Origin: Deltaproteobacteria bacterium
GTDB lineage: Bacteria; Myxococcota_A; UBA9042
Direction: 5' to 3'
Assembly (NCBI GenBank): GCA_016875335.1
Contig: VGRO01000005.1
Location: 11,295 to 75,294, forward strand
Length of the DNA: 64,000 nucleotides
The notes under the pieces are model-generated. The model saw nothing but the letters and a program-made list of their open reading frames with translations. It did not search any database and was not told the origin of the DNA. Positions 1,182-39,596 of the stretch are shown in pieces; positions within the stretch are counted from its first letter, which is position 1; each line of letters opens with the position of its first letter. The position numbers and the translations under genes were made by a program.

Positions 1182-1462
1182 TGCGCAGGACCCCGCTGGT
1201 TTGGGCGCTGCTTGCGTTGGCCGGTTGCCTTCCGGTCGAGCTCAGCGACAAGGAGTTGGCCGACTATTGCGCCAGCGCCGCCGATTGCGCCAAGAAAGCG
1301 CCGCACGCGTGCTGGGACAACGACTGCGTCGCCAACCAGTGCGTGCACAAGGGCACGGCGCCCAAGGTCGGTGTGGATTGCAGTACGACAACGTGTGCGG
1401 TGGGCTGCAAGTGTTCGGGGCCCAAGAGCCCCCACGGCGCCGGGATCTGCGCCAAGTTGTAA
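1181..1462 (+). CDS. Small cysteine-rich lipoprotein (93 aa)
   Basis: ATG at 1181 overlaps the TGA of the upstream gene (ATGA). The N-terminus MRRTPLVWALLALAGC carries a lipobox, followed by 8 Cys in 70 aa. It was read from the in-frame tail of ORF 923..1462. Confidence 0.5.
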   Translation: MRRTPLVWALLALAGCLPVELSDKELADYCASAADCAKKAPHACWDNDCVANQCVHKGTAPKVGVDCSTTTCAVGCKCSGPKSPHGAGICAKL

Positions 1463-1955
1463 GCCGCGTTCGACTCCCGCGCCGCCGACGGTGCCGAAAC
1501 GCTTGACGGTGTGCGTGCTCTGCACGGCCGTTGTGCCCCACCCGACGCCCGTCGGCTCGCAACACCTTGCACTTCTTGCAGTAGGCGACAATGTCGCTGA
1601 ACCTGGGCCCGCTCCTGCCCGGCGCAACCGGCTGATTCAAAAAACGCGGCACCGTCGCGATGTCCGTGGCACCGGGGGTCACCCTCGGCGACACCTCTCA
1701 TGCGTACGACCAGGGACGCCTGCGCGAACTGGCCTATGGCGACATGAACAGGCGGCAGCGCGAACCATCGGCCGGATGCCAGAGCGCCCTGGCTCGTTGG
1801 GATTGCGGCCACTTGCCGCATTGGCGTTGCACGCGGCGAACACGCGGGCCCGACCGACACGTGCAATTGCCCTGCGCGGCACGCCACGCTACCCTGACCG
1901 CTCGCGGACCTCCTCTCGGGGGCGGCCGGTCGCGCCGCCCCCACTGGAGGATCCG

Positions 1956-10700: not shown

Positions 10701-13700
10701 GGCGCAGGTGTGCAGGCTGCCGCCGACCAGGCCGACCACGCCATCGAGACCGACGACCTGCACCGGCTTGTTGCGATTTTGGGTGGCGCCGTCACCGAGC
10801 TGCCCGGTGTCGCCGCGGCCCCAGCAGTACACCTTGCCCGATTGACCGACGGCGCACGCGTGCATCTGGCCGCCGCCGAGCGCAGTCGCCGCCTCTGACA
10901 GCGCGGCCTTGACCGGCAACAGCGACCCCTGGTTGGCGCCCTGCCCCAACTGACCTTGGCCACCTTGGCCGAAACAAAACACCTCGCCCTTGTCGGTCAG
11001 CGCACAGGTGAATTCGTCTCCGGCCCACAGCGCGGTGGCGCCTGTCACGTTGGCCACCTGCACCGGCATGGTGCGCAAGGTGTTGGTGCCGTCGCCCAGT
11101 TGTCCGGCGTTGTTGTAGCCCCAGCAGCGCACCGTGCCCTTGACGAGGGCGCACGCATGGTTGCCACCGGCGACCAGAGCCGTGGCCCAGCCACCCGCGC
11201 CGCAGCCGTTGGCGCCGCACACCTGGCCGTTGCCGCACGCCGTGCCGACGGGTACGGGCGCCGCCAAGCATGCCCCTACGCCGTCGGCGCACAGGCCCGT
11301 CGTACAACCGCCGTCCTTGCACGGCAGAGCTGTGCCTTGGCACTTGCCCGCCTTGCAGGTGTCGCCCGTCGTGCACTGCGACCCGTCGTGGCACCCGGCC
11401 CCGTCGCTGGTGCCAGCGCCGTCGGTTGAGACGTGTTTGCACTGCGTATCGCCCGGCAGCAGCCCGGGGACGCAGGTCGCAACCGTGCAGGCGAGCCCGT
11501 CGTCGGCACAGTCGGCAGCAGTCGCGCAGTCGGCTTGCAGCCCGTCTGGGGCGGCGTTGCTGTCTTCCACTTCCACCGGAACCGCCACGATGTTGTCGAC
11601 GAGGCCATTGCCCAGTTCCAGCGAGTTGTTGCGCCCTGCGCAGCGCACGGTGCCGTCGCCCAAGAGCGCGCAGGTGTGGCGCATGCCAGCGGCGAGGTCC
11701 ACGATCTCACTGCCCAGCAGGGCGGGTGCGGGCTTGCTCTGGTCGGTGGTCCCGCCGTTGGCGAGTTGGCCGTGTGCGTTGTAGCCGGCGCACCAGGCGC
11801 TGCCCGCGCCTCGCCAGCAGACGTGCTCGCGGCCGACGGCGATGCGGTCGGCGGTGGCGAGGCCAGCGGGAACGACGGGAACCTTGCTGTCCAGCTTGTC
11901 GCCTTTGCCGAGCTGGCCAAAGCCGTTCCAGCCAAAGCACACCGGCGGCGCGTCCTTGCGGGTGGCGCAGGTGGTGTAGTAGCCGACGGCGAGGCTGGTC
12001 GCCCCCTGCAGGCCCGGCACCTCGACCGGCACGTTGGTCTGGTTCATCGCCGGCACGCCGATTTCGCCAAACGACGCCGTGCCCCAGCAGCTGAGCCGCC
12101 CGTTGCCGCGCAGGGCGCAGGTGTGGTTCTCGCCAGCGGCAATGGCGACCGCATCGGTCAAGCCGACCACCGGCGCGGGCACGTTGTGGCCGTTGGTGGT
12201 GCCGTCGCCCAGTTGCCCCGTGTTGTTGGATCCCCAGCACTGCGCGGTGCCGTCCTTGACCACCGCGCAGGCGTGGCGCTGGCCGACCGCGATGGCGGTG
12301 GCGTTGGTCAGGCCCTTGACGGCCGCCGGCTTGGTCTGGTCGGTGTCCGCGCCGTTGCCGATGGCCCCGTAGCCGCCGCGGCCCCAGCACACGACCTCGC
12401 CGGCGTTCTTGCGCAGGGCGCAATTGGTGTTCTGGCCGGCGGCGATCGCCGTGGCGTCGTTCAAGCCTGCGACAGGCACGGCAAACATGCGTTGCAGCTT
12501 GTCGCCCACGCCCAGCTCGCCGAATTGGTTGCTGCCCCAACACGCGACCTGCCCACCGGCCAGCAGGGCGCAGCTGTGACTCTCGCCCGCCGTCAGGCGC
12601 TCGGCCCAGCGCAACCGCTTGTCGGCGCAGGTGCCGTACGAGCACACCTTGCCCTGGCCACAGGCCGCGGATCCAGCCACTGGCGCCAATCCGCACCGCC
12701 CCGACTGCGCAGCGCACAAGTCGGTGGTGCAGACATTGCCGTCGCCGCACAGCTTGGCGGTACCGGCGCACACGCCCTTGGCACAGGTGTCGAAAAGGGT
12801 GCACAGGCTGCCGTCGTCGCACGCGCTGCCGTCGCTGGCCGCTTGGACCCCGCACTTGCCGCCGACGCACGCCGCCTGCTGGCATGGGTCGCCGCTGGCG
12901 CATTGGGCATCGCTGGTGCAGTTGCCGCCGACATTGCCGAGCAGGCTGCCCTTGACCGCCACCGGTTTGTTGTGGTCGGTGTTGGCGCCGTTGCCGAGCT
13001 GACCCTGGTTGCCGCTTCCCCAACAGGCGACCTGGCCGTTGGCGAGCATGGCGCAGGAGTGGTTGTCGCCCCCGGCCACAGCGACCGCCTTGGAACCCAG
13101 GGCAACGACCAAGGTCGGCAGGTTGCGGCTGGTGACCGTGCCGTCGCCGAGCTGACCTTGCCCGTTGAAGCCGAAGCACGCGACACCGCCGCTGGTCAAC
13201 ACGGCGCAGGTGTGAAATTGGCCGCCCGACGCGACCAACACCGGCAAGGCGCCCGGCATGGCCAACAGCGGCGTCGGCGTCTTGGCGTTGGCGTTGGCGC
13301 CGTGGCCCAGTTGGCCAAGGTTGCCGTGGCCAAAGCAGCGCATTCGGCCAAAGCGGTCGATGGCGCACGCGTGCTGCCGGCCGGCGCCCAATCCGGCGGT
13401 CGCGGGTGCGTTGACGACCCGCAGGGGCGGCGCCGTGTTGGGCGACCAGGGCGAGCCGAGGCCCTGGACGTTGGTGCCCCAACAGCGGGCGTAGCCATCG
13501 GTGCGCAGCGAACAGGCGAACGTGCCACCGGCAACGACGGCGAGGGCCGGCCCGGCTTCAGCGATGACCACCGGCTTGCCGTTGAATGGCACGGCCGGAA
13601 CGCCCAGCTCGCCGCTGCTGCCCTGGCCCCAACACCACACCGACCCGTCGTTGCGCAGCGCACACGAAAAGTGGTTGCCGCACGCGACGGTGACCGCGCC

Positions 13701-15299
13701 GTCCACACCGCCGACGAGGACTGGCTTGCCGCTGGCGTTGGTGCTGCCGTCGCCCAACTGGCCGACGTGGTTGGCGCCCCAGCACGCGACCTTGCCGCCG
13801 ACGAGCACTGCACAACTGTGGCGGTCGCCAGCGCCGACGTCCACGGGTTCGCCGGGCAGCGCAACATCGACCGGCACATTGCTGTTTTGGGTTCCGCCGT
13901 TGCCCAGTTGGCCGAACTGGCCACTGCCCCAGCACCGCAGCTTGCCATTGGCGACCGCGCAGGTATGGAACTGGCCCGCGGCGATGCGCAGGGGCTTGCT
14001 GACCATCGGTTTGCACTGGCCGACACTGCACGCTTGGCCGGGACCGCAAGGGGTCGCGTCGGCGACCGGTGTCAGTTGGCATTGGCCGTTGACGCAACTG
14101 TCGGCCGTGCACGGGTTCTGGTCGTCGCACGGCGCGGCGCAGACCGGCGGGTTGGTGTCGGGGGTCGCGTCGGGCGCTGCGTCTCCTGCGCTGTCTTGCC
14201 CGGCGTCTTGGGTGGTTTCCACGGCGGTGTCGGTCACGGTTTCGGCCTGCGTGTCCTGCACGGCATCGACGGTCGCGTCCTGCACCGTTTCGGCGGCGGT
14301 GTCCTGGGCGGTATCGGCTGCGGTGTCGAGGCCAGTGTCGATGGCCGCGTCGGCGGCGGTGTCGGGCGCTGTCTCCGCGGCCGTGTCGGGCACGGTTTCA
14401 GCACCGGTTTCTGCCACTGTCTCGGAGGCCATGTCCTGGACCGTGTCGGTGACAACGTCGGCCGCCATGTCCTGGACGGCGTCGCTGCTGTCGCCGGCCA
14501 TCGCGTCCGCGGTCGTATCGGCCACCGCGTCGGCGGTTGTGTCCATGGCGGTGTCGGCCAAGGGCACGTCGGTGCTCACCTCGGCGACGGTTTCGGCAAC
14601 TGTGTCGAGCCCGGCATCGGCCGTCGTGTCCGCGCCGCCGTCGGTATCTGGGCCGGGGGCGGCGGTGTCGTCCCCGTCGGCGCTGCCGGGGTCGGCAGCG
14701 ATGTCGGCCGCCGTTTGGTCTGGGTCGGCCACGTTGGCATCGCTGGCATCGTCGGCGTCGCCCGCGCCGCCGGGGTCGGCGGGGCTCGGGTCGGCCACTG
14801 CGACCTCGGTATCGGCCAGGTCAGGCAGTTCGGGCAAGGGACCGAGTTCGGTCACTGTGGGCGCGTCGCTGCCGTCGCCTGTGTCGCTGTCGTCGCCGGT
14901 ATCGCTGTCGTCGCCGGAATCGCTGAGGCCGCCGTCCTCAGGGGAGACGCCATCTCCTGTCGCGTCCGCGGCCTCGCCGTCCGCGCTGTCGTCGGCGTCG
15001 CCGTCCGCGGCTGCACTGTCGAGTTCTTCGGTGGCTGAGCCGTCGCCGACGTCGGCGTCTCCCGCTGCGAGGTCGAGATCCGCGACTTCTGGAACCGCGC
15101 CGTCAACGCCCAACTCGGCTGCGGCGACATCGGAACCACCAGCGTCTGCCAGCGACAGGCCATCGACCTTGCCGTCCTGCCCGGCCGCATCGCTGCCTGC
15201 TGCACCCGAAATCTGCAAGCGGTCGTCGTCGCAGGCCCAGAGCGCCGCGAGGATGCCGAGAACTGCCACCCGACGCCGCCAGTTGACCGATCCGCGCAT
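7062..15299 (-). CDS. Giant lipoprotein (2745 aa): acidic low-complexity N-terminal region, multiple RCC1-repeat β-propellers separated by Cys-rich modules
   Basis: ATG at 15299 gives MRGSVNWRRRVAVLGILAALWAC (lipobox). This is followed by ~300 aa of D/A/T/G-rich repeats. Behind that are many RCC1-type blades (H[ST]CA...G.V.CWG.N..GQLG.G) grouped into about 5-6 propellers. The propellers are separated by CDDGNPCT / C..G.C Cys-rich modules, and the C-terminal Cys-rich tail ends at the stop at 7062. Confidence 0.75.
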   Translation of the reverse strand: MRGSVNWRRRVAVLGILAALWACDDDRLQISGAAGSDAAGQDGKVDGLSLADAGGSDVAAAELGVDGAVPEVADLDLAAGDADVGDGSATEELDSAAADGDADDSADGEAADATGDGVSPEDGGLSDSGDDSDTGDDSDTGDGSDAPTVTELGPLPELPDLADTEVAVADPSPADPGGAGDADDASDANVADPDQTAADIAADPGSADGDDTAAPGPDTDGGADTTADAGLDTVAETVAEVSTDVPLADTAMDTTADAVADTTADAMAGDSSDAVQDMAADVVTDTVQDMASETVAETGAETVPDTAAETAPDTAADAAIDTGLDTAADTAQDTAAETVQDATVDAVQDTQAETVTDTAVETTQDAGQDSAGDAAPDATPDTNPPVCAAPCDDQNPCTADSCVNGQCQLTPVADATPCGPGQACSVGQCKPMVSKPLRIAAGQFHTCAVANGKLRCWGSGQFGQLGNGGTQNSNVPVDVALPGEPVDVGAGDRHSCAVLVGGKVACWGANHVGQLGDGSTNASGKPVLVGGVDGAVTVACGNHFSCALRNDGSVWCWGQGSSGELGVPAVPFNGKPVVIAEAGPALAVVAGGTFACSLRTDGYARCWGTNVQGLGSPWSPNTAPPLRVVNAPATAGLGAGRQHACAIDRFGRMRCFGHGNLGQLGHGANANAKTPTPLLAMPGALPVLVASGGQFHTCAVLTSGGVACFGFNGQGQLGDGTVTSRNLPTLVVALGSKAVAVAGGDNHSCAMLANGQVACWGSGNQGQLGNGANTDHNKPVAVKGSLLGNVGGNCTSDAQCASGDPCQQAACVGGKCGVQAASDGSACDDGSLCTLFDTCAKGVCAGTAKLCGDGNVCTTDLCAAQSGRCGLAPVAGSAACGQGKVCSYGTCADKRLRWAERLTAGESHSCALLAGGQVACWGSNQFGELGVGDKLQRMFAVPVAGLNDATAIAAGQNTNCALRKNAGEVVCWGRGGYGAIGNGADTDQTKPAAVKGLTNATAIAVGQRHACAVVKDGTAQCWGSNNTGQLGDGTTNGHNVPAPVVGLTDAVAIAAGENHTCALRGNGRLSCWGTASFGEIGVPAMNQTNVPVEVPGLQGATSLAVGYYTTCATRKDAPPVCFGWNGFGQLGKGDKLDSKVPVVPAGLATADRIAVGREHVCWRGAGSAWCAGYNAHGQLANGGTTDQSKPAPALLGSEIVDLAAGMRHTCALLGDGTVRCAGRNNSLELGNGLVDNIVAVPVEVEDSNAAPDGLQADCATAADCADDGLACTVATCVPGLLPGDTQCKHVSTDGAGTSDGAGCHDGSQCTTGDTCKAGKCQGTALPCKDGGCTTGLCADGVGACLAAPVPVGTACGNGQVCGANGCGAGGWATALVAGGNHACALVKGTVRCWGYNNAGQLGDGTNTLRTMPVQVANVTGATALWAGDEFTCALTDKGEVFCFGQGGQGQLGQGANQGSLLPVKAALSEAATALGGGQMHACAVGQSGKVYCWGRGDTGQLGDGATQNRNKPVQVVGLDGVVGLVGGSLHTCANRADGTVRCWGNNNSFRLGRVSPAQATVPVVVPNLDQVGQLSAGDQHACVLRLGKVYCWGGGGYGQLGDGKTLERPGALAVSGTNTWRSVDSGELHQCAIDAAGKAWCWGLGNQGQLGNGAKANATTPQAVKTAARFVHLAASKLFTCGLDTTGRVLCWGENNVGQLGLGNQGGALDTPTVAVMGSDPLPALTGPCTTAGDCGDDGNDCTVPQCDKGICSHPNAAAGAPCSDGDACTGGDACNAGTCIGKAKACDDGSPCTADFCAAPKGQCLAGVLPGGGSCGAGKACESGQCVAKVAGWAATVKTGDTHTCALLTGGQVVCWGANGSGQLGTGDNSGRPEPVLVANVTGAVQIALGHSHSCALDDKGAVRCWGANGFGQLGNGTNQQSALPVQVAFSGKAIAIAAGGNSTCAIAEDKTAWCWGVGDNGQLGDGTTQNRTKPVAIPGYGSTAEIALGPDHGCAIGTDGYLRCTGLNSNGALGFEGLPQLLTPRIVGGLLRLGSLGLGSQLTCARKADGTATCFGQGGHGQLGDNKKVSSPSPVAVAKLTGVVEVAAGTLSACARLTDGTVACWGYGATGALGNGGTASQGEPVAVPKLAGVRDLSTSGNHTCAVRQDGSVWCWGSGNNGQLGNGLSTASQTPVVVPLSLPVQPLGGGSACATAADCSDDGNPCTVATCVNGQCTHGAANDSVGCDDGDPCTVSDACANGVCAAKPANCDDGNACTADVCASGTGLCIPAPLPGGGACAGAKVCLDGLCTASAFGFAGTVAAGEGHSVAALRNGQARAWGGNSEGELGNGNKTEFFTMQTVGSATDVWRVAAGDHLSGALVLGKPASLGMWGRGADGAIGNGKNADALALTPTDGPPSPAVLSALGRHVCALDSAGKAWCWGTNSSGQLGDGSTSQRNKPTAVVGLAGPVHDISAGVNHTCAALFDGTVQCWGQNNLGQVGKPTGGSFKTPQSVSGVNKAVAVGAGADSSCALRSDGAVQCWGDGGKGQLGNGKTALSVAPVNVVQLTPAAQLSVGAVHACTLDAAGTARCWGYNATGALGDESTSSATVPVAVKGLGRAIAISAGHSHSCAVRGDGAIFCWGMGLHGRLGTGLQSQATRPAWVLGSDPAPFGGDTCKVAADCADDGNPCTAAGCDNGACKHAAVGDGAACDPGSACVVSGVCKAGSCAGIAKDCDDVDKCTADACQPRTGVCLHAALPACP

Positions 15300-17991: not shown

Positions 17992-20664
17992 CTACGCGAC
18001 AATGGCGCCGAGCAACCGCGTGACCGGCCGTCGAAACGGCAGCGACAGCAGCGGAATCGCTTCATCCGCAGCCCGCTGCGCGCGCTCAACGGCCAGCTTG
18101 GCATCGCCACCACCTTTTCTGCCCTCCTGGATGCCGAGTGCTGGCCTGTCCGGCCTTGCCAGCAGATCGTTCAACCACAGCACCGCGCGCCAGTCAGGTA
18201 GCACCTGGGTTGAGGACGGTCGCACGAGAACGCCGAGCACCGCCGACCGCACCGCGACGCCCTCGGTGTGGACGCCATCGGCCACGGTGAACAGGTAGAG
18301 CGATTCGTGTGCGGCATCCGTGGCAGCCACTGAAGTCACCTCGTCGCACGCCGCCGCCAGCGCACCCTCGATCACTGGCACGCCAGTGCCCAGCAGTCTG
18401 TGGGCGTCCTCTCCGGCACGGTGGCGCTGGAAGTGGACGCGCTCATACCGCTCGCGCACGAAGAACCTGGGGCCGCGCCACTGCGCCGGCGTCTCGAAGG
18501 TCAACAGCCCGTCTCCCGACTCGAAAAGCCGCTTGCCGTTGGCGCGTAACGCTGCCCGCAGGAACGGCACGAGGTCCGGCAGGTCCAGCTTGGGGATCGT
18601 CGGAGCATCCACGCCAAACTCGAAGCGAGCCGTGTGGCCAACAAGTGCTTCCACGGCGGTCACCACCTCCTTGCCGCCAAGGGTAGCCGATCGCGCATCG
18701 AACCATTGGTCGACGTCGGCGATGGCCACGTCGACCGCGCCCGCCATCAATTCGGCGAATGCCGCAGGTGGCGCCGCCCCCAAGACGAGGCCATGGATGT
18801 CCTCGGGCGTCGCTTGGACCCCGCGAAATGCCAGCGCAATGCGGTCCAGTTTCTCCAGCAGCTTGGCCCAAATCCGGCCCTCGACGGTGTCCGGGTTGCG
18901 CATCATGTGAATGTCGACCGGATGCTTCTGGCCAAAGCGGTTCAGGCGCCCGACCCGCTGATGCATCCGCATTGGATTCCACGGCAAGTCATAGTGGACC
19001 AGGGTGTGGCAGTTGTCCTGCAGGTCAATGCCTTCACCTGCGGCCTCCGTTGATACCAGAAAGCGAATGCGACCTTCGCGGAACGCAGCTGCGGTGTCCG
19101 CGCGGTTGCTGACGCGCCTGACCAACAGCTTGCTTTCCCGGTCGGGCAGTTCCAGGTAGCCATCGCCATTGATGAAACTAACCGCTCCTGAGCCAAACCG
19201 TGCAGCGAGGTCGGCAACGATGAGCGCCTGCGTGACCTTGTATTCGGTAAAGATCAGCAGCGACGTCTGCGCCGGCAGTTCCGCAACCAGGGCCAACAGC
19301 ACATCAAGCCGCGACTCGCGCTCCACCGCCGCTGCGGCCTCTACGAGTTCGCGCAGCGACGGCACCTCATCCTCGGCAATTTGTAGGCCGTCCATCCAGT
19401 CATCGATCTGGGCCTCTAGCCTTTCGCGCTCCGCCGCGGCGGCTTCCGATGGGTCGTCATCCAGCGCGTGCAATCTCGCCCAGGCCGCGTCAAGCTCCTT
19501 CTGCCGCGCCTGCCGCCCGCCTTCACCACTTAGACGCGCCAACCGCTTGCGCAACGCGCTGGCGACCGCCGCCACCGAACTCGCCGCCAGCTTCTGCAAC
19601 GTGATGAGGACCAACATGACCGTGCGCTGGCTGCCGAGTCGCATCCGCTTGGCGAACACCTTGCCGCTGGCAATGAACGCCGTCAGCTTGTCGTAGAATG
19701 CCTGCTCCGCCGGGCCGTAGCCGTAGGTGCGATCGTGGACCGCACTCGGCTTGAACAGGCGTTCGCCGCGCATGTCGGTCACGTTCGCCTTGTTGTTGCG
19801 GATGACCACAGACGGCAAGTCGGGGAGCGCGTCTTCCAGCGCCATCTGAGGCTCGAAATGGCCAGGATCCAGCAGCGCCAGCAGGCTGAGGAAGCCGAAG
19901 TCCTTGCCACGGTGTGGCGTCCCGGTGAACAGCAGCATGCCGCCAATTAGCCGCTGCTCGTCCATCTTGCGCAGCAGTTCGAGGCCAAGCGTTTGGCCGC
20001 CGCGCTCGTCGGCGTTCAGGTGGTGGGCTTCGTCGACGACAACGAGGTCCCACGGCTCTGCCGTCAGGATGCGCTCCCAGCGCTTCTTGTGATCGAGGCG
20101 CAACGTATGCAGCGACGCGACGACCACCCGATGGGCGTTCCAGTAATCGGCGGCCGGGTGGTCCACGTCGGGGTTATAGGCGCTGCTGCGGATGTCGAAC
20201 ATCTCGCGCAATCGGGTCTGCCACTGCTCGACCAGCGAAGCCGGCGCGAGAACCAACAGCCGGTGGACAACCTTGCGGCCGAGCAGCGGCGACAGGATGA
20301 GGCCCGCCTCAATGGTCTTGCCGAGGCCCACGTCGTCAGCAATCAGCCACCGCGACGGCCAGCGCTGCAAGACGCGGTGAGCGACCCAAAGTTGGTGCGG
20401 CAATAGCTTGACGCGAGACCTCGAGAAAACGCCCCAGCGGTCGCTGGTCGAGCGGATGGCGTGGGCGAGCAGCTTGGTGCCCACCACGAGCGGCGTGCCC
20501 CACATGGCGCCGGCCAGCGCTTCCTCGGGGGCGGCGATCGGCCGTGTCTCTGAGGAGAGAACCTTGAGGATGGCGCCGCTGTCGAACTCGACGACCAGGA
20601 TGTCGCCAGTGTCGGACAAAACAGTACCCTGGCCGTGGACCGTGTGGTGGAGGCGAGTGGGCAT
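17992..20664 (-). CDS. SNF2-family (SWI2/SNF2) helicase/ATPase
   Basis: ATG at 20664 (MPTRLHHTVHGQ) lies 8 nt downstream of the TAG of the upstream gene. Motifs: LIADDVGLGKTIEAG (motif I), VVVDEAHHL (DEAH, motif II), LFTGTPHRG, and a C-terminal helicase lobe with HYDLPWNPMRMHQRVGRLNRFGQ. The longer ORF to 21177 has a Pro/Arg-rich junk N-terminus. Confidence 0.85.
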   Translation of the reverse strand: MPTRLHHTVHGQGTVLSDTGDILVVEFDSGAILKVLSSETRPIAAPEEALAGAMWGTPLVVGTKLLAHAIRSTSDRWGVFSRSRVKLLPHQLWVAHRVLQRWPSRWLIADDVGLGKTIEAGLILSPLLGRKVVHRLLVLAPASLVEQWQTRLREMFDIRSSAYNPDVDHPAADYWNAHRVVVASLHTLRLDHKKRWERILTAEPWDLVVVDEAHHLNADERGGQTLGLELLRKMDEQRLIGGMLLFTGTPHRGKDFGFLSLLALLDPGHFEPQMALEDALPDLPSVVIRNNKANVTDMRGERLFKPSAVHDRTYGYGPAEQAFYDKLTAFIASGKVFAKRMRLGSQRTVMLVLITLQKLAASSVAAVASALRKRLARLSGEGGRQARQKELDAAWARLHALDDDPSEAAAAERERLEAQIDDWMDGLQIAEDEVPSLRELVEAAAAVERESRLDVLLALVAELPAQTSLLIFTEYKVTQALIVADLAARFGSGAVSFINGDGYLELPDRESKLLVRRVSNRADTAAAFREGRIRFLVSTEAAGEGIDLQDNCHTLVHYDLPWNPMRMHQRVGRLNRFGQKHPVDIHMMRNPDTVEGRIWAKLLEKLDRIALAFRGVQATPEDIHGLVLGAAPPAAFAELMAGAVDVAIADVDQWFDARSATLGGKEVVTAVEALVGHTARFEFGVDAPTIPKLDLPDLVPFLRAALRANGKRLFESGDGLLTFETPAQWRGPRFFVRERYERVHFQRHRAGEDAHRLLGTGVPVIEGALAAACDEVTSVAATDAAHESLYLFTVADGVHTEGVAVRSAVLGVLVRPSSTQVLPDWRAVLWLNDLLARPDRPALGIQEGRKGGGDAKLAVERAQRAADEAIPLLSLPFRRPVTRLLGAIVA

Positions 20665-20672
20665 TGGTGGGC

Positions 20673-23600
20673 CTAATCGCGCAGCAGGACGTAGGCGTCG
20701 AGCTCGAGGGGGAGCTTGCCCAGGCCGTGGAAGTCGGCGCGGTCGGCGCCGATGAGGCCAGCGAGCCAGTCGTGGACGCATTCGCTGGTGTACTGCTCGG
20801 AGCTTCGGTCGGCGAAGTAGCCGAGACGGCGGAGGACGTTGGTGAGAATATGGCCGGGTTCGTAACCTTGCCGCCGCGGGTCTGACTGGGACTGCGACAG
20901 AGGCAGCACGCCAAAGTACTTTAGTTCTCCCAAGATCCACGGCAGGCGGTTCACCGCCCCCGCCATCGCCGGGACATCGGCGGAGTCCGCATCGCCGGAA
21001 AGGCCGGGGTCGGTGGCCGGCGAGAGTGCCTCCGTTCTGCCTTGGCGCAAGGACTCTGCGTAGACTTTCCACCACTTTGTGGCGGCGTACATGTCCGGAA
21101 GAACTCGCATCCAGAAGCCGTAGGGGCGATAGCCTCCCATGCGATCGCGGCTCCATTCGTCGAGGAAGTCCGTCCACGTGCCATCGGGCGCGTCATCGCC
21201 AAATAGCCGGTCGAACCATGTGCTACCCAGACGCCGGGAACGTCGCTTCAGCAGTTGCTCGGCGAACCCACGGTGCTGTTCGCCCTTGAGTCCAAGGCCT
21301 TGCACGTGGGCGAGCAAGAACAGGACCATCCAAGCCCGCTTGGTTTCCGCCATGTTCCAGTCGCCCTTGAGCCAAGCCCCGATTTGCCGAGGTTGGTCCG
21401 GGTTCCAATCCCGGGGCCAGAGTTCCTTGCGCAGCGCTTGCAGGCGCGTTAGCCGGTGGTTCTCCTCGGCCCAGGTGTCCCACAATTCGCAGAGTCGCTT
21501 CTGCGCCTCGGTATGGGAGACTGGTTGACTCGGCGGCTGCGGGGGCGGCGGCTGCTGCCAAGTCTGCAGAGGGCCGAAGAGACCAATTTCGACGGTCTGC
21601 GACTGCCCGGGTACCAGCCCAGCTCGACCCGCTGCGGCCTGCCACTCCTCTCTTGTCCTCGCCCATGGCAAACAGCCACGGTCTTTGACGGCCTGGCAGA
21701 CTTTAGCGCCCAGCGTTCCTTCCGCCAAATACCTCGCGGCAGCACTCTGGCGAGCGACCGTCTCGGCAGCGCCCGCCCACGCCGCCAGCAGCGCCGCATC
21801 CGCCCTCAGCTCGCCCCGTAGGCGTAGGAACACATCCAATCGGCGCGCTTGCGCCGCAACCTCGGCAGAAGCAACCGCGCTATCTGGTGCGAAAGCACCG
21901 CGCAACAACTCGTCGTCGAAGCTCTCGGGCTTGACAGTCAACGCATCCTTGCGGGTCGCAGCCTCCGGCGGCAACAGCAACCCGGAAATGAGCGACTGGC
22001 CGCCTCCGCGCGCGGTCAGCGTCAGCCGCGACGCCCACGCCTCGAGGGCGCTCGGCTGCCCCTGCACTCGCGCACCCTCACTGTTCACGCTTTCCCAGCA
22101 GTCCTGCGCAGCCAGCGGCGCCAGCAAGTCCAGGTGATCCGCCGACAGTTGCTCGCTACGGGGGGCCGACCAGGCGCTCAACTGGCCGACCACCTTGAAA
22201 TCGCGCCTCTGCACCCGAAGCAGTCGCGACAACACTTCCGCCACTTCAGCGGTCACTACGGAACCCGCGCTCGCCCGCAATTCGGGAATCGCCGCAAGGA
22301 GCCCTTGCACGCCGTGGCTCGCCGCCGCCTGTGAAGCCACGAAGATAGTGCCCTGTGCTGCAATCGGCCCGACTAATGCTGGCCACGGCGCGTCGAGCCC
22401 AGACGGCACCACGGCTAGTGTGCTGCTGAGCTTGCCTAGGCCGCGGTCATTGGCGTGCAGCCGCTGCAGCAATTGCAGGCGGTCGGCCACCGGCTGGCCG
22501 TGTAGGCCGCCGGCCAGGATACTCCAGATCGCGCCCACGAAACGCGACGGACTTTCCTTGCAACCGAGGACTGTGCTCGCCTCACCATCACTCTGCACCG
22601 CCGTCACCAGTTCAGCCAAGGCCTGCCCGAGCTGTTCGCCGAGCCCGTCGAGAACCTTCGTCGACTCCTCCGCCTTGAAGTCCACGCGCACACGGCCGGT
22701 GTCCAGCTTGAAGTCTCCGTTGAGGCAATAGCCCAGTTCCCAGTCCTCTTCGGTCGGGGCGACTACCCAGAACGACGGTATTTCTTTCGGCATCGGCGTA
22801 GGAATGCCGTTGTCCAGCGCGAACAGCACCGTGCGCAGGGTGCGCGCGGGCTTAAGCGGGCGGTAGCGGAGCAGCCGAACTGGCCAGCCACTATCGCCAA
22901 CAACGACCGCTGAGGTCGACACAGACCAACCTTGGACGCCGGGCACGTCCACGGCGTCAAACCCAACGCGCCCGCCGTGCTCGACCGGCACTTCAATTGC
23001 CATGACTTGCCGGGCCATCGCCGTCAGGACGGCCGCGACTGGCCGAAGGCGGCTGAACACCTGTTCGAGCAAGTACGCGGGGTCAAACTCGACAGCCAAG
23101 GGCAGTGTGATCGTCGTCGGCAGCATGCCTTCGACTTCTTCAGCCGCAATCAGCGCTGGCGTCCGGACCTCGTTCGGGACTAGCGCTGCATCGAGGCGAA
23201 ACGCCAAGGTGCCCGAACGGACGACAGGGTCGTCGCTGATCATGTGTACAGACTTGAAACCCAGGCCAAACCGGCCCGTGCACTGCACGCCGCCGGTCTC
23301 CGCTTCACCCCCGCGCTTGGCGCTGACATGGAAGCGCGCCATGAAGTAGAGGTCATTATCCCATTGATTGGCCTTGCCCTCTGGGAAGGCGCTACCGCCG
23401 TGCTCGTTGATGACCCGGCCCCAGTGCGTGAACACAAGCGTAGGGCTGGCGGCGCCCTGGATGTGAACCACCTCGACCCGGACGGTGCGCGCGGCCTCCG
23501 GAAGCATGGCAAGGCGCGACATCACCATGCGCTGTTCCAGGGCATCATCGGCATTCTGCAGCAGTTCCAGTAGCACCGATGCCGGTGAGTACGCATAGGT

Positions 23601-34855: not shown

Positions 34856-37800
34856 ATGAAAATCAAGACGAACCTTCGCAACGCGCGGATCGCGACCTCG
34901 GCCGTCGCGGCCTGCATCGCCTGCAGCGAACCGGTCGCCCCAGCCGGTGGCGGCGGCGCGGTCCAGGTCGATGCGGCTGCGCCGTCGTTTGGCGACGGCT
35001 TTGTGCCCGACGGCAAGAAGGACAGCGCGGCGCCCAAGGATGCGGCCGACGCGGTCATCGGCGACGCACCGCCCGACCTCGACGGTGGCAACGCAGCCGA
35101 AACAGATCCGGACGTCGGTGGTGTTCCCGACGGCGATCCCGCGGCAGACCTCGGCACCGACGCGGCCAGCCCGCCGGTCGAGGACGCGGACAGCGTCGGC
35201 CAGGGTCCAGAAGCCAACGAGGAAAAGGACGCCGCAGGTCCCGACGCCAGCAAGCCGTGCACGGCCGACCCCGAGTGCGACGACGGCAGCGCCTGCACCA
35301 CCGACACCTGCACCGCAGAGGGCTGCGCCTACCAGCCCAAGAACTGCGACGACGGCCTGCCGTGCACCGCCGACGGCTGCGACAAGACGACCGGCAACTG
35401 CAAGCACAAGACGCTGGCCGAAACCTGCGCCATCGAGGGCGCCTGCTACGCCGCAGCCGAGGCCCAGCCGGTCAACCCGTGCAAAGTGTGCGACCCCACC
35501 GCGAGCCAGAGCGCGTGGAGCGACCAATCCGGCGCCGCGTGCGACGACGGCAACCTGTGCACGGGCAAGGACCAGTGCAATGCCGGCACCTGCGTGGGTG
35601 AGGCAAAGCCCGGGTGCTGCAAGGCTGATGCCGACTGCGCGGTCGCCGATGTCTGCAGCACGGCAAATTGCGACGTCGCCACGGGCACCTGCCAGGTCAC
35701 GCCCAAGGCGGGCTGCTGCGTGGACGGGCCGTGCTGCGACCCCGCAACCCACCAGCCCAAGACCGCGGGTGCCGCGTGCGGCGCGGCCGTGGTCGGCACG
35801 CAGTGGCAGTGCGCGGGACAGGAAGTGCAAAACCGCAGCGCATCGGCGGGTTGCACGGGCGCGGGTCCTGCTGCATGTTCCGATGCGGCCGCCGACCAGG
35901 TGTGGTCGCCCTGGGCTACCGTCAAGTCGTGCGGCTCCAACGAGAAATGCCAGGCGACCGGCACGACGTCCGCGACTTGCGTGGTGCTCGCTCCGCTCGA
36001 GTGCGCGACCAACGCCGACTGCGACGACAAGAATCCGTGCACCGACGGGGTGTGCACCAACGGCAAATGCAGCCACCTGGCCAAGAAGTGCACGGCCACC
36101 ACCAGCTGCCAGGTTCCGTACTGCGACAGCAAGACCGGTCAATGCGCGGTCAAGTGGCTGGCCGGCACCTGCGAAATCGGCGGGAACTGCATGGTCAGCG
36201 GCGTCAAGAATCCGGCTGACGCGTGCATGAGTTGCCAGCCCACCGTCGCACAAGACAAGTGGACGCCGCTGCCCAACTGCACGTGCGCAGGCGGCGTCTG
36301 CTGCAACAACGGCATCGTCAAACCGGCAGGCACCGCTTGCGCCAGCGCGACCCTGGCCACCGAGTACGGCTGCGGCGCGGACGGCAAGACCCAGCGCAAG
36401 CGCATCGCCTACGCGGGGTGCACTGGCGGCACGGCGATTTGCAGCAGCGCCAGCACCTACTACGCATGGCAGCCGTGGACCGACCTCGGCGCGTGCAAGG
36501 ACACCGAGGCCTGCGACGCCACCGACAAGACCAAGCCGCCGCTGTGCAAAGCGATCGACCCGGTGTGCGCCCAACAGGATCCCTACGAGGCGGACGGGAC
36601 GTCGCTGGCCAAGGCCCATGACGTCGGCACGTTCGGCGACGCGACCGCCAGCAAGGCGCTGACGCCGGTCGTATTGATGGGCAGCGCCAGCGACGTCGAC
36701 GTGGTCCAGTGGACGGTGACCGACGACGCCAACAACTATGCGCCGCAACTCGGTGTGACGTGGTCGAGCGCCCAGAACGTCAAGGTCTGCGTGTACGCGC
36801 GCTGCACGGCGGGCGCTGGCGGCAAGGACTGCCAGTCGCTGGTGTGTCCGACGGGCAGTCAGAACGCAACCAGTGCCACGGTCAGCGCCGCGGCGGTCAA
36901 CGGCTGCTGCATGTCGGGCACCAAGGGGGCCATCGCGCTGGCGCCCAAACCGTCAAGCGGAACCAACGCTACGCACGTGGCCTACCTCGAAGTGACCAAC
37001 GGCACGCCCGCGTGCACGCAGGTCGCCGCTACGTTGAGCTTCGGCACGCCGACCGCGACCGTGTGCAAGGCCGGCGTCGACACCTGTTGCGAGGCCAACG
37101 GCACCTGGTCGCCCAAGGGCAAGGCCTGCGGCACCTTGACTGTGGCCAGCGAATACAAGTGCGAAACCGACCTGCCCGGCGGCAAGGTGCTCGTGCGCAA
37201 GGCCACCAGCGGCTGCACCGGCTCGTCCACGTTGTGCTCGGCCGCATCGGCCAACTACGCGTGGGGCGCCTGGACGACCTACAAGGCGTGCCTCGCCAGT
37301 GAGATGTGCTCGGTCACCTCGACCTCGAGCCCCGGTACCTGCAAACCGGCAACCCAATGTGTGGCAGGTTCGCAGTGCTGCACCGCGACCGGCACCTTTG
37401 CGCCGACCGGCACGCTGTGTGGCAAGGGGGCCTCGGTCGAGTACCAGTGCTCGGGAAGCGACATCCAGGTGCGCAAGAATTTCTCGACCTGCGCGGGCAC
37501 CAGCACCGGCTGCTTCGGCACCTCGGCATACAGTCCGTGGACGACGGTTTCGGCGTGCCCGGTGGGCCAGACCTGCACCGCCGGGGCCAGCAAATCGACG
37601 TTGCCGACCTGTAAGGCGGCCGGACCCGACCTGTGCAAGCAGACCGACAAGTGGGAGGGCACCGAAACCACCTCGGCCAGCTTCGACCTCGGCGTGTATT
37701 CCGACAGCGCAAATGCAGTATTCGTCGACCCCGCCGTCCTGCTGCAAAGTCCGACCGACAAGGACTATCTCAAGTACAGCATCACCGACGACGTCAACTT

Positions 37801-38632
37801 CTACGACCCCGAGGTGTACGTGACGTGGACAGCGCTCAAGCCCGTCAAGGTGTGCGCCTACTATCGGTGCAACAATGGCACCAGTGGCACCGACTGCTAC
37901 GACGTGACCTGCCCGATTGGCGCGGACACCTACCAAAACACCGCGGTCAGCGGCGCCAAAGCCAACGGATGCTGCAAGACGGCGGCCAGCGGCACGCTGA
38001 GCTACTTTCCCGACGCGCCGAACAGCATGGATGAGACGGGTACGGTGTTCGTCAACGTCACCAACGCCGACACCCCCTGCCAATCGGTCAGCCTCAAGCT
38101 CGCGTTCGGCGCCTCGACCCAGACCAAGTGCAGTCCCGGCAACACCTGCTGCACCAACAAGGGCACCTACGCGGCGAACGGCACGGCCTGCGGGTCGGCC
38201 ACCAAGGCCCAGTACCGCTGCACCACGGTCGGAGGGGTCAACCAAGCGCAGAAGCAGACTTCGGTAGGTTCGTGCAGCGGCACCAGTGCGACGTGCAACA
38301 CCACGACGACCAACTGGGGACCGTGGGCGCTGGAAACGCCTTGCATCGGCCCGGAGTTCTGCGCCGTCGGCTTGCCCACCAGCATCGCGCAGTGCGTCGC
38401 CGGCAAGCCGGGTTCGTGTGCGGGGTCGTGCGGCAAGCAGAGCAAGGACGGCTGCTTTTGCGACGGCAGTTGCATCACGCTCGGCGATTGCTGCAAGGAT
38501 TTTGCGGCGCTGTGCAGCGGCACCTGCGACGGCGCCTGTGGCGGCATGGGCAAGATCGGCGGGTGCATGTGCGATGCACAGTGCTCCGCGGCGGGCGACT
38601 GCTGCCTGGACAAGAACGTCAAGTGCCCGTAA
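34856..38632 (+). CDS. Large Cys-rich lipoprotein (1258 aa) ending in two tandem somatomedin-B-like domains
   Basis: ATG at 34856 lies 8 nt after the upstream stop. MKIKTNLRNARIATSAVAACIAC carries a lipobox, followed by an acidic D/A/G linker. The body has CDDGN/DDGLPCTADGC Cys-rich repeats and Cys/Thr/Gly-rich modules. The last 73 aa (38411..38629) contain two copies of C-x3-C-x7/8-C-x-C-D-x2-C-x5-CC-x-D-x3/4-C. Confidence 0.7.
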   Translation: MKIKTNLRNARIATSAVAACIACSEPVAPAGGGGAVQVDAAAPSFGDGFVPDGKKDSAAPKDAADAVIGDAPPDLDGGNAAETDPDVGGVPDGDPAADLGTDAASPPVEDADSVGQGPEANEEKDAAGPDASKPCTADPECDDGSACTTDTCTAEGCAYQPKNCDDGLPCTADGCDKTTGNCKHKTLAETCAIEGACYAAAEAQPVNPCKVCDPTASQSAWSDQSGAACDDGNLCTGKDQCNAGTCVGEAKPGCCKADADCAVADVCSTANCDVATGTCQVTPKAGCCVDGPCCDPATHQPKTAGAACGAAVVGTQWQCAGQEVQNRSASAGCTGAGPAACSDAAADQVWSPWATVKSCGSNEKCQATGTTSATCVVLAPLECATNADCDDKNPCTDGVCTNGKCSHLAKKCTATTSCQVPYCDSKTGQCAVKWLAGTCEIGGNCMVSGVKNPADACMSCQPTVAQDKWTPLPNCTCAGGVCCNNGIVKPAGTACASATLATEYGCGADGKTQRKRIAYAGCTGGTAICSSASTYYAWQPWTDLGACKDTEACDATDKTKPPLCKAIDPVCAQQDPYEADGTSLAKAHDVGTFGDATASKALTPVVLMGSASDVDVVQWTVTDDANNYAPQLGVTWSSAQNVKVCVYARCTAGAGGKDCQSLVCPTGSQNATSATVSAAAVNGCCMSGTKGAIALAPKPSSGTNATHVAYLEVTNGTPACTQVAATLSFGTPTATVCKAGVDTCCEANGTWSPKGKACGTLTVASEYKCETDLPGGKVLVRKATSGCTGSSTLCSAASANYAWGAWTTYKACLASEMCSVTSTSSPGTCKPATQCVAGSQCCTATGTFAPTGTLCGKGASVEYQCSGSDIQVRKNFSTCAGTSTGCFGTSAYSPWTTVSACPVGQTCTAGASKSTLPTCKAAGPDLCKQTDKWEGTETTSASFDLGVYSDSANAVFVDPAVLLQSPTDKDYLKYSITDDVNFYDPEVYVTWTALKPVKVCAYYRCNNGTSGTDCYDVTCPIGADTYQNTAVSGAKANGCCKTAASGTLSYFPDAPNSMDETGTVFVNVTNADTPCQSVSLKLAFGASTQTKCSPGNTCCTNKGTYAANGTACGSATKAQYRCTTVGGVNQAQKQTSVGSCSGTSATCNTTTTNWGPWALETPCIGPEFCAVGLPTSIAQCVAGKPGSCAGSCGKQSKDGCFCDGSCITLGDCCKDFAALCSGTCDGACGGMGKIGGCMCDAQCSAAGDCCLDKNVKCP

Positions 38633-38669: not shown

Positions 38670-39596
38670 ATGCGCCGTGCCTGCCTGCTCGCTGTCGTGA
38701 TTGCCGCCGGTTGCGCGGACGCCCCGCCGCTCGGCGACCCCAACGCCGTCGCCTGTGACGCCTTGGGCGCCGCCTGGTGCAAGGCCGTGGCGGCCTGCGC
38801 GCCCTACCTCGTCAGCAGCCAATACGGAGACATCGCCAACTGTGGCAAGCGCCAGGCCGCAGTGTGCATGGCCCGCGTCACCGCGCCGGACACGGGCTAC
38901 AACGCCGCCGCCATCCAAGGCTGCGCCACCGCGCTGCCCGGGGCGCTCGAATGCGAGTACTACACTGCCATCGACGCCGTCTCGGCGTGCCAGCCCAAGG
39001 CCGGCAAACGCAAGAATGCCGAGCCGTGCGGCGACCACAGCCAGTGCCAGAGCGGCCTGTGCAGCGGCCTGGACGCCGGCATGTGCGGCCAGTGTCTGAG
39101 CCGCGTCGCCTCCGGCAAGGCGTGCTCGGCCACCGCGGACTGCGAGTTTGGGCTGTCGTGCGTCGCGACACAGAGCGTCAAGGTGTGCACGCCGCGTTCG
39201 CCCGTCGGCGGCACCTGCGACAAGTCCAAGGTCTGCCTCGCCCCTGCGGTGTGCATCGGCGGCGGTTGCGTCGCGCCGGCCGGCCTCGGCAAGCCCTGCG
39301 ACACCGCGGCCAAGAACTGCGACGCCGGCGCCGGCCACTACTGCCACGACCACAAGGCGGTGTGCACCGCATACCAAGTGGCCAAAGAGGGCGAACCGTG
39401 CGGTTATTTCGACGGCGATCGCGTCGCATGCGCCCACGGCGCCACCTGCAAGCTCGCGGGCGGCGGCAAGGGCACCTGCGAGAAACAAGCCGACAACGGC
39501 GGCAGTTGCAGCGTGGGTCAGGCCGCGCCGTGCCGCGCCGGCTTGGTGTGCAACGCGGGCGTGTGCGGTGTCACCAAGCCAGCGGCGTGCCAATGA
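38670..39596 (+). CDS. Cys-rich lipoprotein (308 aa)
   Basis: ATG at 38670 lies 37 nt after the upstream stop. MRRACLLAVVIAAGC carries a lipobox. About 40 Cys are arranged in repeated C..G.C / CxxxxC motifs. Confidence 0.6.
   Translation: MRRACLLAVVIAAGCADAPPLGDPNAVACDALGAAWCKAVAACAPYLVSSQYGDIANCGKRQAAVCMARVTAPDTGYNAAAIQGCATALPGALECEYYTAIDAVSACQPKAGKRKNAEPCGDHSQCQSGLCSGLDAGMCGQCLSRVASGKACSATADCEFGLSCVATQSVKVCTPRSPVGGTCDKSKVCLAPAVCIGGGCVAPAGLGKPCDTAAKNCDAGAGHYCHDHKAVCTAYQVAKEGEPCGYFDGDRVACAHGATCKLAGGGKGTCEKQADNGGSCSVGQAAPCRAGLVCNAGVCGVTKPAACQ

Follow-up and report, generated by a model that had tools for sequence, protein, structure and literature searches.

Tandem Somatomedin-B Domains at the C-Terminus of a Cysteine-Rich Predicted Lipoprotein from an Uncultured Myxococcota Bacterium

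Introduction

Somatomedin-B (SMB) domains are best known from Metazoa and are taught as an animal module of the extracellular matrix and of plasma proteins. In vitronectin and the ENPPs, these domains are small protein- or surface-binding knobs, and in ENPP1 they contribute to dimer formation. Crystal structures of vitronectin and ENPP have given the disulfide connectivity of the SMB knot as C1-C4, C2-C8, C3-C7, and C5-C6. Here, we describe a 64,000-nucleotide (64-kb) stretch of DNA, hereafter called the window, from a Deltaproteobacteria bacterium (GenBank assembly GCA_016875335.1, contig VGRO01000005.1, positions 11,295 to 75,294 of the forward strand), in which one gene encodes a 1,258-residue, cysteine-rich, predicted lipoprotein that ends in two consecutive eight-Cys units. 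By profile score, non-Cys signature, and predicted fold, both of these C-terminal units are members of the SMB family. We propose, with a probability of roughly 0.6, that they are a real SMB pair forming the disulfide-locked, ligand-binding tip of a lipid-anchored stalk, and that they are part of a large bacterial SMB population. Our literature search found no paper discussing SMB domains in bacteria.

Comparison with Known SMB Proteins

ENPP1, ENPP2 (autotaxin), and ENPP3 possess, like the tail of the window protein, two consecutive eight-Cys SMB units, and the CxCD and GDCC-x-D motifs are common to both. However, the ENPP pair is N-terminal and is followed by phosphodiesterase and nuclease-like domains, neither of which was found by Pfam search in the window protein or its segments. 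The ENPP units are joined by a linker of about 9-12 residues, whereas that of the window protein has 3 residues; in addition, unit 2 here ends the protein, and K replaces the aromatic residue. What the two have in common is the SMB module alone. EndoU (placental protein 11, PDB 9ftw) was the best sequence match among solved structures, with both EndoU units aligning end to end. EndoU contains an XendoU endoribonuclease domain and SMB units that are ~27 residues apart, whereas Pfam detected no catalytic domain in the window protein or its segments.

The SMB domain of vitronectin (PDB 1oc0, 3bt1) has the same eight-Cys framework, with identical C3-C8 spacing, although the RGD motif and hemopexin repeats of vitronectin are absent from the window protein. 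Vitronectin residues L24, Y27, and Y28, which are reported to contact PAI-1 and uPAR, correspond to S, T, and L in unit 1. Because these contact residues are not conserved, binding of animal vitronectin ligands by the tail is not expected, and any ligand of the tail would presumably not be the animal one.

In its N-terminal two thirds, the protein has Dicty_CTDC (slime-mold) repeats in common with ~100 relatives from Myxococcota metagenome-assembled genomes (MAGs) and with two other giant proteins of the window. Of the 187 relatives returned by a full-length search, almost all come from MAGs with the labels Myxococcales, Myxococcota, or Deltaproteobacteria; among the 120 of these large Cys-rich proteins that were listed, just 24 carry SMB-pattern units.

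The Cysteine Pattern of the Tail

The lipoprotein gene occupies 34856-38632 on the + strand. It starts with an ATG at 34856, 7 bases past the stop codon of the preceding gene, and ends with a TAA at 38630-38632. The open reading frame (ORF) has the same start as in public gene calls, and its product is 100% identical to the NCBI entry 'MAG: hypothetical protein FJ100_01975 [Deltaproteobacteria bacterium]'. An identical gene call was obtained on a Logan contig (L001) assembled independently of the NCBI contig. The G+C content (GC) at third codon positions (GC3) of the gene is 0.87, and the protein contains 122 Cys (9.7%), 16 of which lie in the final 73 residues (1186-1258; window 38411-38629).

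Unit 1 (CAGSCGKQSKDGCFCDGSCITLGDCCKDFAALC; residues 1188-1220 from C1 to C8; 38417-38515, + strand) has Cys at 1188, 1192, 1200, 1202, 1206, 1212, 1213, and 1220, and unit 2 (CDGACGGMGKIGGCMCDAQCSAAGDCCLDKNVKC; residues 1224-1257; 38525-38626, + strand) at 1224, 1228, 1237, 1239, 1243, 1249, 1250, and 1257, so that the protein ends one residue after the last Cys of unit 2. Across window positions 38417-38626, the gaps between successive Cys are 3, 7, 1, 3, 5, 0, and 6 in unit 1 and, after the 3-residue linker, 3, 8, 1, 3, 5, 0, and 6 in unit 2; both units fit the eight-Cys SMB spacing C-x3-C-x(7-10)-C-x-C-x3-C-x5-CC-x6-C. The SMB hallmarks are present as CFCD and CCKDF in unit 1, which is of the canonical 'CC-x-D-F' type, and as CMCD and CCLDK in unit 2, which represents a 'CC-x-D-K' terminal subtype. 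A first-pass annotation of this DNA, made from the sequence alone, had described two consecutive eight-Cys units with this spacing, including CxCD and CC.D(F), and our examination confirmed them residue by residue; the ORF and the NCBI protein likewise agree with its description of a 1,258-residue Cys-rich protein with tandem units at the C-terminus.

When the whole protein was shuffled 20,000 times, a loose version of the SMB Cys pattern arose in 14 shuffles and a strict one in none, and when the Cys-dense tail itself was shuffled, the pattern occurred in 480 of 200,000 cases. Six-frame translation of the window revealed the pattern solely at this tail, despite the presence of other large Cys-rich proteins. 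Because the pattern is rare in shuffles and confined to a single site in the window, and because its 16 Cys are invariant in orthologues, these data argue against a chance origin.

Assignment of the Tail to the SMB Family

PF01033 (Somatomedin_B) was the sole Pfam family matched by the tail. The gathering cut-off of 23.1 bits was exceeded by the whole protein (28.1 bits), by the 77-residue tail (44.9 bits, E 1.5e-11), and by unit 1 on its own (37.4 bits). The two matching stretches of the tail, the second of which falls on unit 2, cover positions 2-39 of the 40-position profile. NCBIfam gave no match to the protein. Because spurious matches are a risk with Cys-rich sequences, we used as controls six shuffles in which the Cys were fixed and the other residues permuted, together with four complete shuffles: the Cys-fixed set gave weak PF01033 signals of 11-13.6 bits and never exceeded 13.6 bits, and the complete shuffles yielded nothing. 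With the real unit at 37.4 bits and the Cys-fixed shuffles at 13.6 bits at most, non-Cys residues contribute ~24 bits to the score of unit 1. Public databases already annotate PF01033 on the window protein.

A phmmer search with the tail against all PDB sequences returned 37 matches at E up to 1, every one of which bears SMB domains; EndoU was the best (2.5e-8), ENPP2 and ENPP1 matched at ~5e-3 across both units, and SUSD2 and vitronectin were also retrieved. We then built a profile from 64 SMB-like units taken from the window protein and from bacterial relatives. This bacterial-unit profile matched 43 PDB sequences at E <=0.01, all of them SMB-bearing (EndoU, ENPP1-3, vitronectin, SUSD2), with the best value for EndoU (3.9e-15) and ~1e-7 for vitronectin. 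Conversely, PF01033 was the one family matched by each of the 64 distinct bacterial units. With Cys included, the identity of unit 1 to SMB units of human and mouse is 41-47%. The segment CFCDGSCITLGDCCKDFAALC of unit 1 fits a PROSITE-type SMB signature, C-x-C-x3-C-x(5,6)-C-C-x-[DN]-[FY]-x3-C, and the corresponding segment of unit 2, CMCDAQCSAAGDCCLDKNVKC, departs from it at [FY] alone, where K is found. The proposal of the first-pass annotation that the tail consists of tandem SMB domains is therefore borne out: hidden Markov model (HMM) scores for PF01033 lie above the cut-off for the protein, the tail, and unit 1, and the bacterial profile leads to SMB structures only. The PF01033 search that it had suggested, with absence of a significant hit as a refuting outcome, gave a significant match.

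Structure prediction agreed with this assignment. With an alignment of 53 rows, comprising orthologous tails and single bacterial SMB units, AlphaFold2 modelled the tail with a mean predicted local distance difference test (pLDDT) score of 94.0 and a predicted template modelling score (pTM) of 0.79; pLDDT was at least 90 for unit 1. Each unit has a short helix after C5, and this helix and the compact knot fold of the model resemble solved SMB domains. In a Foldseek search against the PDB, the top 50 matches were all ENPP1, ENPP2, or ENPP3, aligned over 78-86 columns that span both units, with 31-35% identity and probability up to 0.99. The structural check that had been proposed for the tail thus gave a confident model with ENPP tandem SMB regions as the best structural matches, while the SMB disulfide connectivity of the tail is only implied by its Cys-for-Cys alignment to ENPP, EndoU, and vitronectin.

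Constraint among Orthologues and a Terminal Subtype

In 11 orthologous tails (51-83% identical), all 16 Cys and several G/D positions are invariant, as is the GDCCLDK motif of unit 2. The ratio of nonsynonymous to synonymous substitution rates (dN/dS), determined with two orthologues, was 0.13 and 0.21 for the tail and 0.12 and 0.18 for the remainder of the gene; a value of ~1 against a further locus (L003) was set aside and attributed to a reading-frame offset in locus trimming. The tail is under purifying selection and is constrained like the body of the protein.

Orthologues of ~1,250-1,360 residues retain the C-terminal tandem SMB pair, and many of them have one additional SMB unit directly after an N-terminal acidic spacer. 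This post-spacer unit is absent from the window protein and its closest relatives, in contrast to P0009-P0013, P0015, and P0016. Relatives of ~1,900 residues have three N-terminal SMB units and one at the C-terminus, and those of ~730 residues have three in their C-terminal third; in the relatives, SMB units are confined to the site immediately behind the spacer and to the C-terminal end. The comparison shows that SMB copy numbers shift by recent gain or loss of the module within one orthologous family, with the units staying at the ends of the putative stalk.

Within the protein family of the window protein, all 20 'CC-x-D-K' units are found at most 6 residues from the C-terminus, compared with none of the 36 'CC-x-D-aromatic' units. 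In the wider SMB collection, DK units are mostly internal (43 vs 5 terminal). The final unit therefore represents a separate subtype tied to its position, and the positional rule is specific to the family of the window protein. Such a dedicated terminal subtype suggests a more specialised role.

We scanned GTDB (one genome per species) with a query reduced to the pattern GDCC[LPA]DKxx[KC], a restriction that captures the terminal subtype only and so understates the bacterial spread of SMB domains. The scan identified 33 loci in 23 MAGs, and 12 of the loci encode near-full-length orthologues with 40-85% identity. Sources of the MAGs are lakes and groundwater, among them Baikal, Erken, Umea, Zurich, and Mendota, and 19 of the 23 are titled Myxococcales, Myxococcota, Polyangiaceae, Deltaproteobacteria, or Proteobacteria. 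The other four bear Enterobacteriaceae or Klebsiella titles, but the GC of their loci is 58-72% and the content is of Myxococcota type; the titles 'Klebsiella pneumoniae' and 'uncultured Enterobacteriaceae' attached to L006, L016, L018, L022, L023, and L029 look wrong.

Distribution and Origin of Bacterial SMB Domains

An exhaustive search of 1.84 billion cluster representatives with the bacterial profile retrieved 2,714 proteins at E <=1e-3, 738 at <=1e-10, and 50 at <=1e-30, with up to 18 regex-defined SMB units in some proteins. PF01033 was present in 116 of the 117 shortest among the top 149 profile matches. The majority of these 117 scanned proteins had no partner domain. Animal-looking partners were Trypsin (7), XendoU (4), Astacin (3), Antistasin (3), and CUB (1), and bacterial-looking partners were Dockerin_1 (2) and Endonuclease_1, Amidase_2, Ntox16, Peptidase_S8, Lactamase_B, CarboxypepD_reg, and Spond_N (1 each). 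Labelled clusters among the profile matches comprised one Myxococcales MAG and one sea star. A lipobox regex, which flagged 52 of the top 149 matches, was dropped as a sign of bacterial origin because it also flagged the sea-star protein. All four sampled matches with lipoprotein-like N-termini sit in dense bacterial gene neighbourhoods; for instance, a seven-unit SMB protein adjoins a histidine kinase and glycosyltransferases, and a protein with SMB and P-domain adjoins pyruvate-formate-lyase and RND-efflux genes. The view of the first-pass annotation that SMB domains are rare in bacteria was accordingly overstated, given 2,714 matching clusters, many of them in bacterial contexts or with bacterial partner domains.

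The other two of these four proteins may be described individually. The top profile match (414 bits), P0121 (L037 5001-8636), is a 1,211-residue lipoprotein of 18 SMB units, encoded on 67% GC DNA next to a gene with Ser/Thr-kinase, GAF, and guanylate-cyclase domains and a lipoxygenase gene. P0210 (L035 4001-5101) is a 366-residue lipoprotein-like protein with SMB and Spondin_N domains, encoded on a 902-kb bacterial contig of 49% GC (GCA_020630875.1) and flanked by Lhr helicase, UDP-glucose dehydrogenase, YkuD, and transglycosylase genes. Its composition suggests that SMB has been paired with a second animal-type extracellular-matrix domain in a bacterium whose GC content is unlike that of the Myxococcota loci.

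For both SMB units of the window protein, the nearest neighbours are bacterial. Mean non-Cys identity was 31% between bacterial units and 21% between bacterial and eukaryotic units, the latter from a small animal set. A word-indexed search with the 77-residue tail alone gave no match in a database of 5.8 billion proteins, as no indexed words were shared, and a search with an alignment (A4) returned just 13 short proteins, a mixture of EndoU-like fragments from oyster and springtail and a Polyangiaceae MAG fragment that says little about taxonomic spread. Because the units are closer to bacterial than to animal units, the comparison argues against a recent animal import, and bacterial SMB units seem to have radiated separately and long ago; so short a domain (35 residues), compared in a small sample with uneven labels, is too little to settle the direction or age of transfer.

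Architecture of the Protein and Its Gene Neighbourhood

All features described in this paragraph are on the + strand. The N-terminus (34856-34924) looks like a lipoprotein signal peptide with a lipobox (MKIKTNLRNARIATSAVAACIAC-SEP, reading ...SAVAACIAC-SEP), in which Cys23 is the probable lipidation site. At the equivalent position, orthologues have the canonical lipoboxes LSAC-SDP, ALGC-SDP, and AAGC-SDP, with S/A-D/E-P following the Cys. In Myxococcus, lipoproteins with Lys at +2 stay in the inner membrane; if this rule applies here, Ser at +2 would be compatible with a location at the outer membrane or the surface. The signal is followed by a Cys-free, acidic, low-complexity spacer of ~110 residues rich in Ala, Pro, Gly, and Asp (34925-35257), which is present in all orthologues. 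Between this spacer and the SMB pair extends a run of Cys-rich modules of ~1,050 residues. It begins with a region of Dicty_CTDC repeats (35258-35725), matched by PF00526 in three stretches at 27.4 bits against a cut-off of 27, and a second Cys-rich, Dicty_CTDC-like region (36002-36280) gave a weak PF00526 score of 13.1 bits, which is under the cut-off. A ~90-residue, 10-Cys module occurs in five copies (35714-35995, 36281-36553, 37064-37351, 37352-37621, and 38123-38407), whose alignment has 15 invariant columns, 34-42% identity to copy 1, and the pattern C..G..CC...G..CG...EY.C...R...GCTG...C...W..W...C...E.C...C; in the ~1,900-residue relatives, this module is repeated up to ~10 times. Two copies of a ~170-residue domain (36554-37066, beginning ..DPYE.., and 37622-38131, beginning ..DKWE..) are 35% identical over 171 columns. 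Pfam scans of protein segments matched neither the ~90-residue module nor the ~170-residue domain, the opening D-P-Y-E or D-K-W-E of which may be reminiscent of bacterial pre-peptidase C-terminal (PPC) domains.

The lipoprotein gene is preceded on its strand by plsX and, directly before it, by a gene for an APP1-type phosphatidate-phosphatase-like protein. Downstream, after a gap of 37 nt, a second Cys-rich lipoprotein of 308 residues (MRRACLLAVVIAAGC...; 38670-39596, + strand) showed a weak EB-module match only, and it is followed by a 303-residue protein without a match and then by an AAA ATPase. The 308-residue lipoprotein keeps its place directly downstream in the two closest relatives (L002 and L003), with 78% identity. 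A promoter and terminator scan gave no + strand signal and no terminator-like site between the lipoprotein gene and the downstream genes. The arrangement indicates that the 308-residue lipoprotein is probably co-transcribed with the gene of the SMB protein, and the two products may act together.

The window as a whole has 69% GC and encodes several other large proteins. These include a 2,184-residue Cys-rich Dicty_CTDC protein (1212-7766, + strand) and a giant Cys-rich protein of 2,745 residues with ~25 RCC1 repeats and Dicty_CTDC repeats (7062-15299, - strand); the two ORFs are convergent, and their 3' ends overlap by ~700 nt as listed. Also on the - strand are an ORF for an SNF2-type helicase (17992-21177) and two large proteins with matches to the sacsin domain (PF25794; 20673-25943 and 25382-28498). 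As listed, these ORFs between 17992 and 28498 overlap, and their gene boundaries are uncertain.

Proposed Role and Alternative Explanations

On the reading that we favour, the protein would be exported from its host, an uncultured freshwater Myxococcota bacterium, and anchored to lipid via the lipobox Cys, with the acidic spacer holding it away from the membrane. All Cys would be oxidised outside the cytoplasm. On the cell envelope or within the matrix, the chain of disulfide-rich modules may make up a stalk that is long, rigid, and resistant to proteases; such an extracellular stalk is suggested by the putative lipobox, the acidic spacer, the 122 Cys, and the end positions of SMB units in relatives. 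The tandem SMB pair, two eight-Cys knots of ~35 residues, would be the distal, disulfide-locked tip, which, by analogy with the SMB domains of vitronectin and the ENPPs, may bind to a protein or to a surface, and the invariant terminal GDCCLDK unit would be the specialised part of that tip. The protein as a whole is probably extracellular, disulfide-rich, and adhesive.

Several points weigh against this reading. Unit 2 has no aromatic residue after CC-x-D, a position where SMB domains typically have one. An earlier AlphaFold2 model built from an 11-row alignment was poor (pLDDT 51.5), and a good model needs the deeper alignment. Foldseek E-values were modest, the best being 2.2e-3 and none reaching <=1e-3, and over the unit pair the query-based TM-score (TMq) was 0.42-0.49, with a root-mean-square deviation (rmsd) of 5.4-9.6 A versus ENPP. 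In the model, the fold of the units appears to agree with ENPP, but the mutual orientation of the two units does not, a difference that is expected because the linker has 3 residues here and roughly 10 in ENPP. Finally, the role as a binding tip is inferred from analogy and from the position of the domains.

It is possible, though on balance doubtful, that the SMB units are real but have no external ligand and instead form a structural cap, or a module for self-association by which the stalk is stabilised or oligomerised. The very compact units with their short linker would suit such a module, as would the strictly positional nature of the terminal subtype and the substitution of the presumed vitronectin ligand contacts, and the range of 0 to 3 N-terminal SMB copies among orthologues is what might be seen for an accessory part. 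However, the dN/dS of the tail is as low as that of the remaining protein, and the invariance of non-Cys residues such as L-D-K of unit 2 in orthologues of 40-83% identity is more than a simple cap needs. The same terminal unit could also be regarded as a sorting or export-recognition domain instead of an adhesion module, since within the family of the window protein the DK subtype adheres to the C-terminus without exception and is kept across relatives of ~730, ~1,300, and ~1,900 residues that differ in architecture. We consider this decidedly unlikely: DK units in the wider SMB set are mostly internal, Pfam and NCBIfam matched no sorting-signal family but only SMB or nothing, a putative N-terminal lipoprotein signal is already present, and no secretion-system genes adjoin the locus.

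Two further explanations question the identity or the source of the tail itself. That the SMB likeness is convergent, the tail being another Cys-rich repeat sharing the spacing by chance, might be thought of for a protein with 9.7% Cys and many other Cys-rich repeats, all the more so as the Cys framework alone produces a weak PF01033 signal. Yet the non-Cys share of the unit-1 score, the lack of any other match to the pattern or the HMM in the protein or window, the retrieval of SMB-bearing structures only by the bacterial profile, and the restriction of the Foldseek top 50 to ENPP SMB regions make this very improbable. Still more improbable is that the tail was recently acquired horizontally from an animal, or that the contig represents eukaryotic contamination or a MAG chimera. 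The metazoan reputation of SMB domains and the 41-47% identity of unit 1 to human and mouse units would speak for such an origin, but the gene starts 7 bases after a bacterial APP1-type phosphatase gene in DNA of 69% GC, its product has a putative bacterial lipobox, and 23 MAGs contain orthologues that bear this tail; moreover, the nearest units are bacterial, with the non-Cys identities given above pointing in the same direction, and the contig was assembled independently by NCBI and Logan.

Significance

The SMB domain family is already known, and the locus is a well-supported bacterial member of it, not a new kind of system. It shows an animal-type SMB module used in tandem, and under purifying selection, by an uncultured Myxococcota bacterium, and thousands of metagenomic protein clusters carry SMB domains as well. 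It can also be speculated that SMB domains underwent a large and old radiation, with subtypes of its own, in uncultured bacteria and especially in freshwater Myxococcota, and that animal SMB domains (vitronectin, ENPPs, EndoU) derive from this bacterial pool or share an ancient transfer with it; we regard this idea as rather unlikely at present. If it were true, SMB would not be essentially an animal invention, and this lineage would stand out for its store of 'eukaryote-like' extracellular modules, as the window also encodes RCC1-repeat, slime-mold-repeat, and sacsin-domain proteins. The locus offers a documented bacterial SMB example with a confident model, and its family-specific terminal subtype is now available as a candidate for ligand binding. 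Its interest is mainly evolutionary, together with that of the terminal subtype, and it provides a starting point for the question of where animal SMB domains originated.

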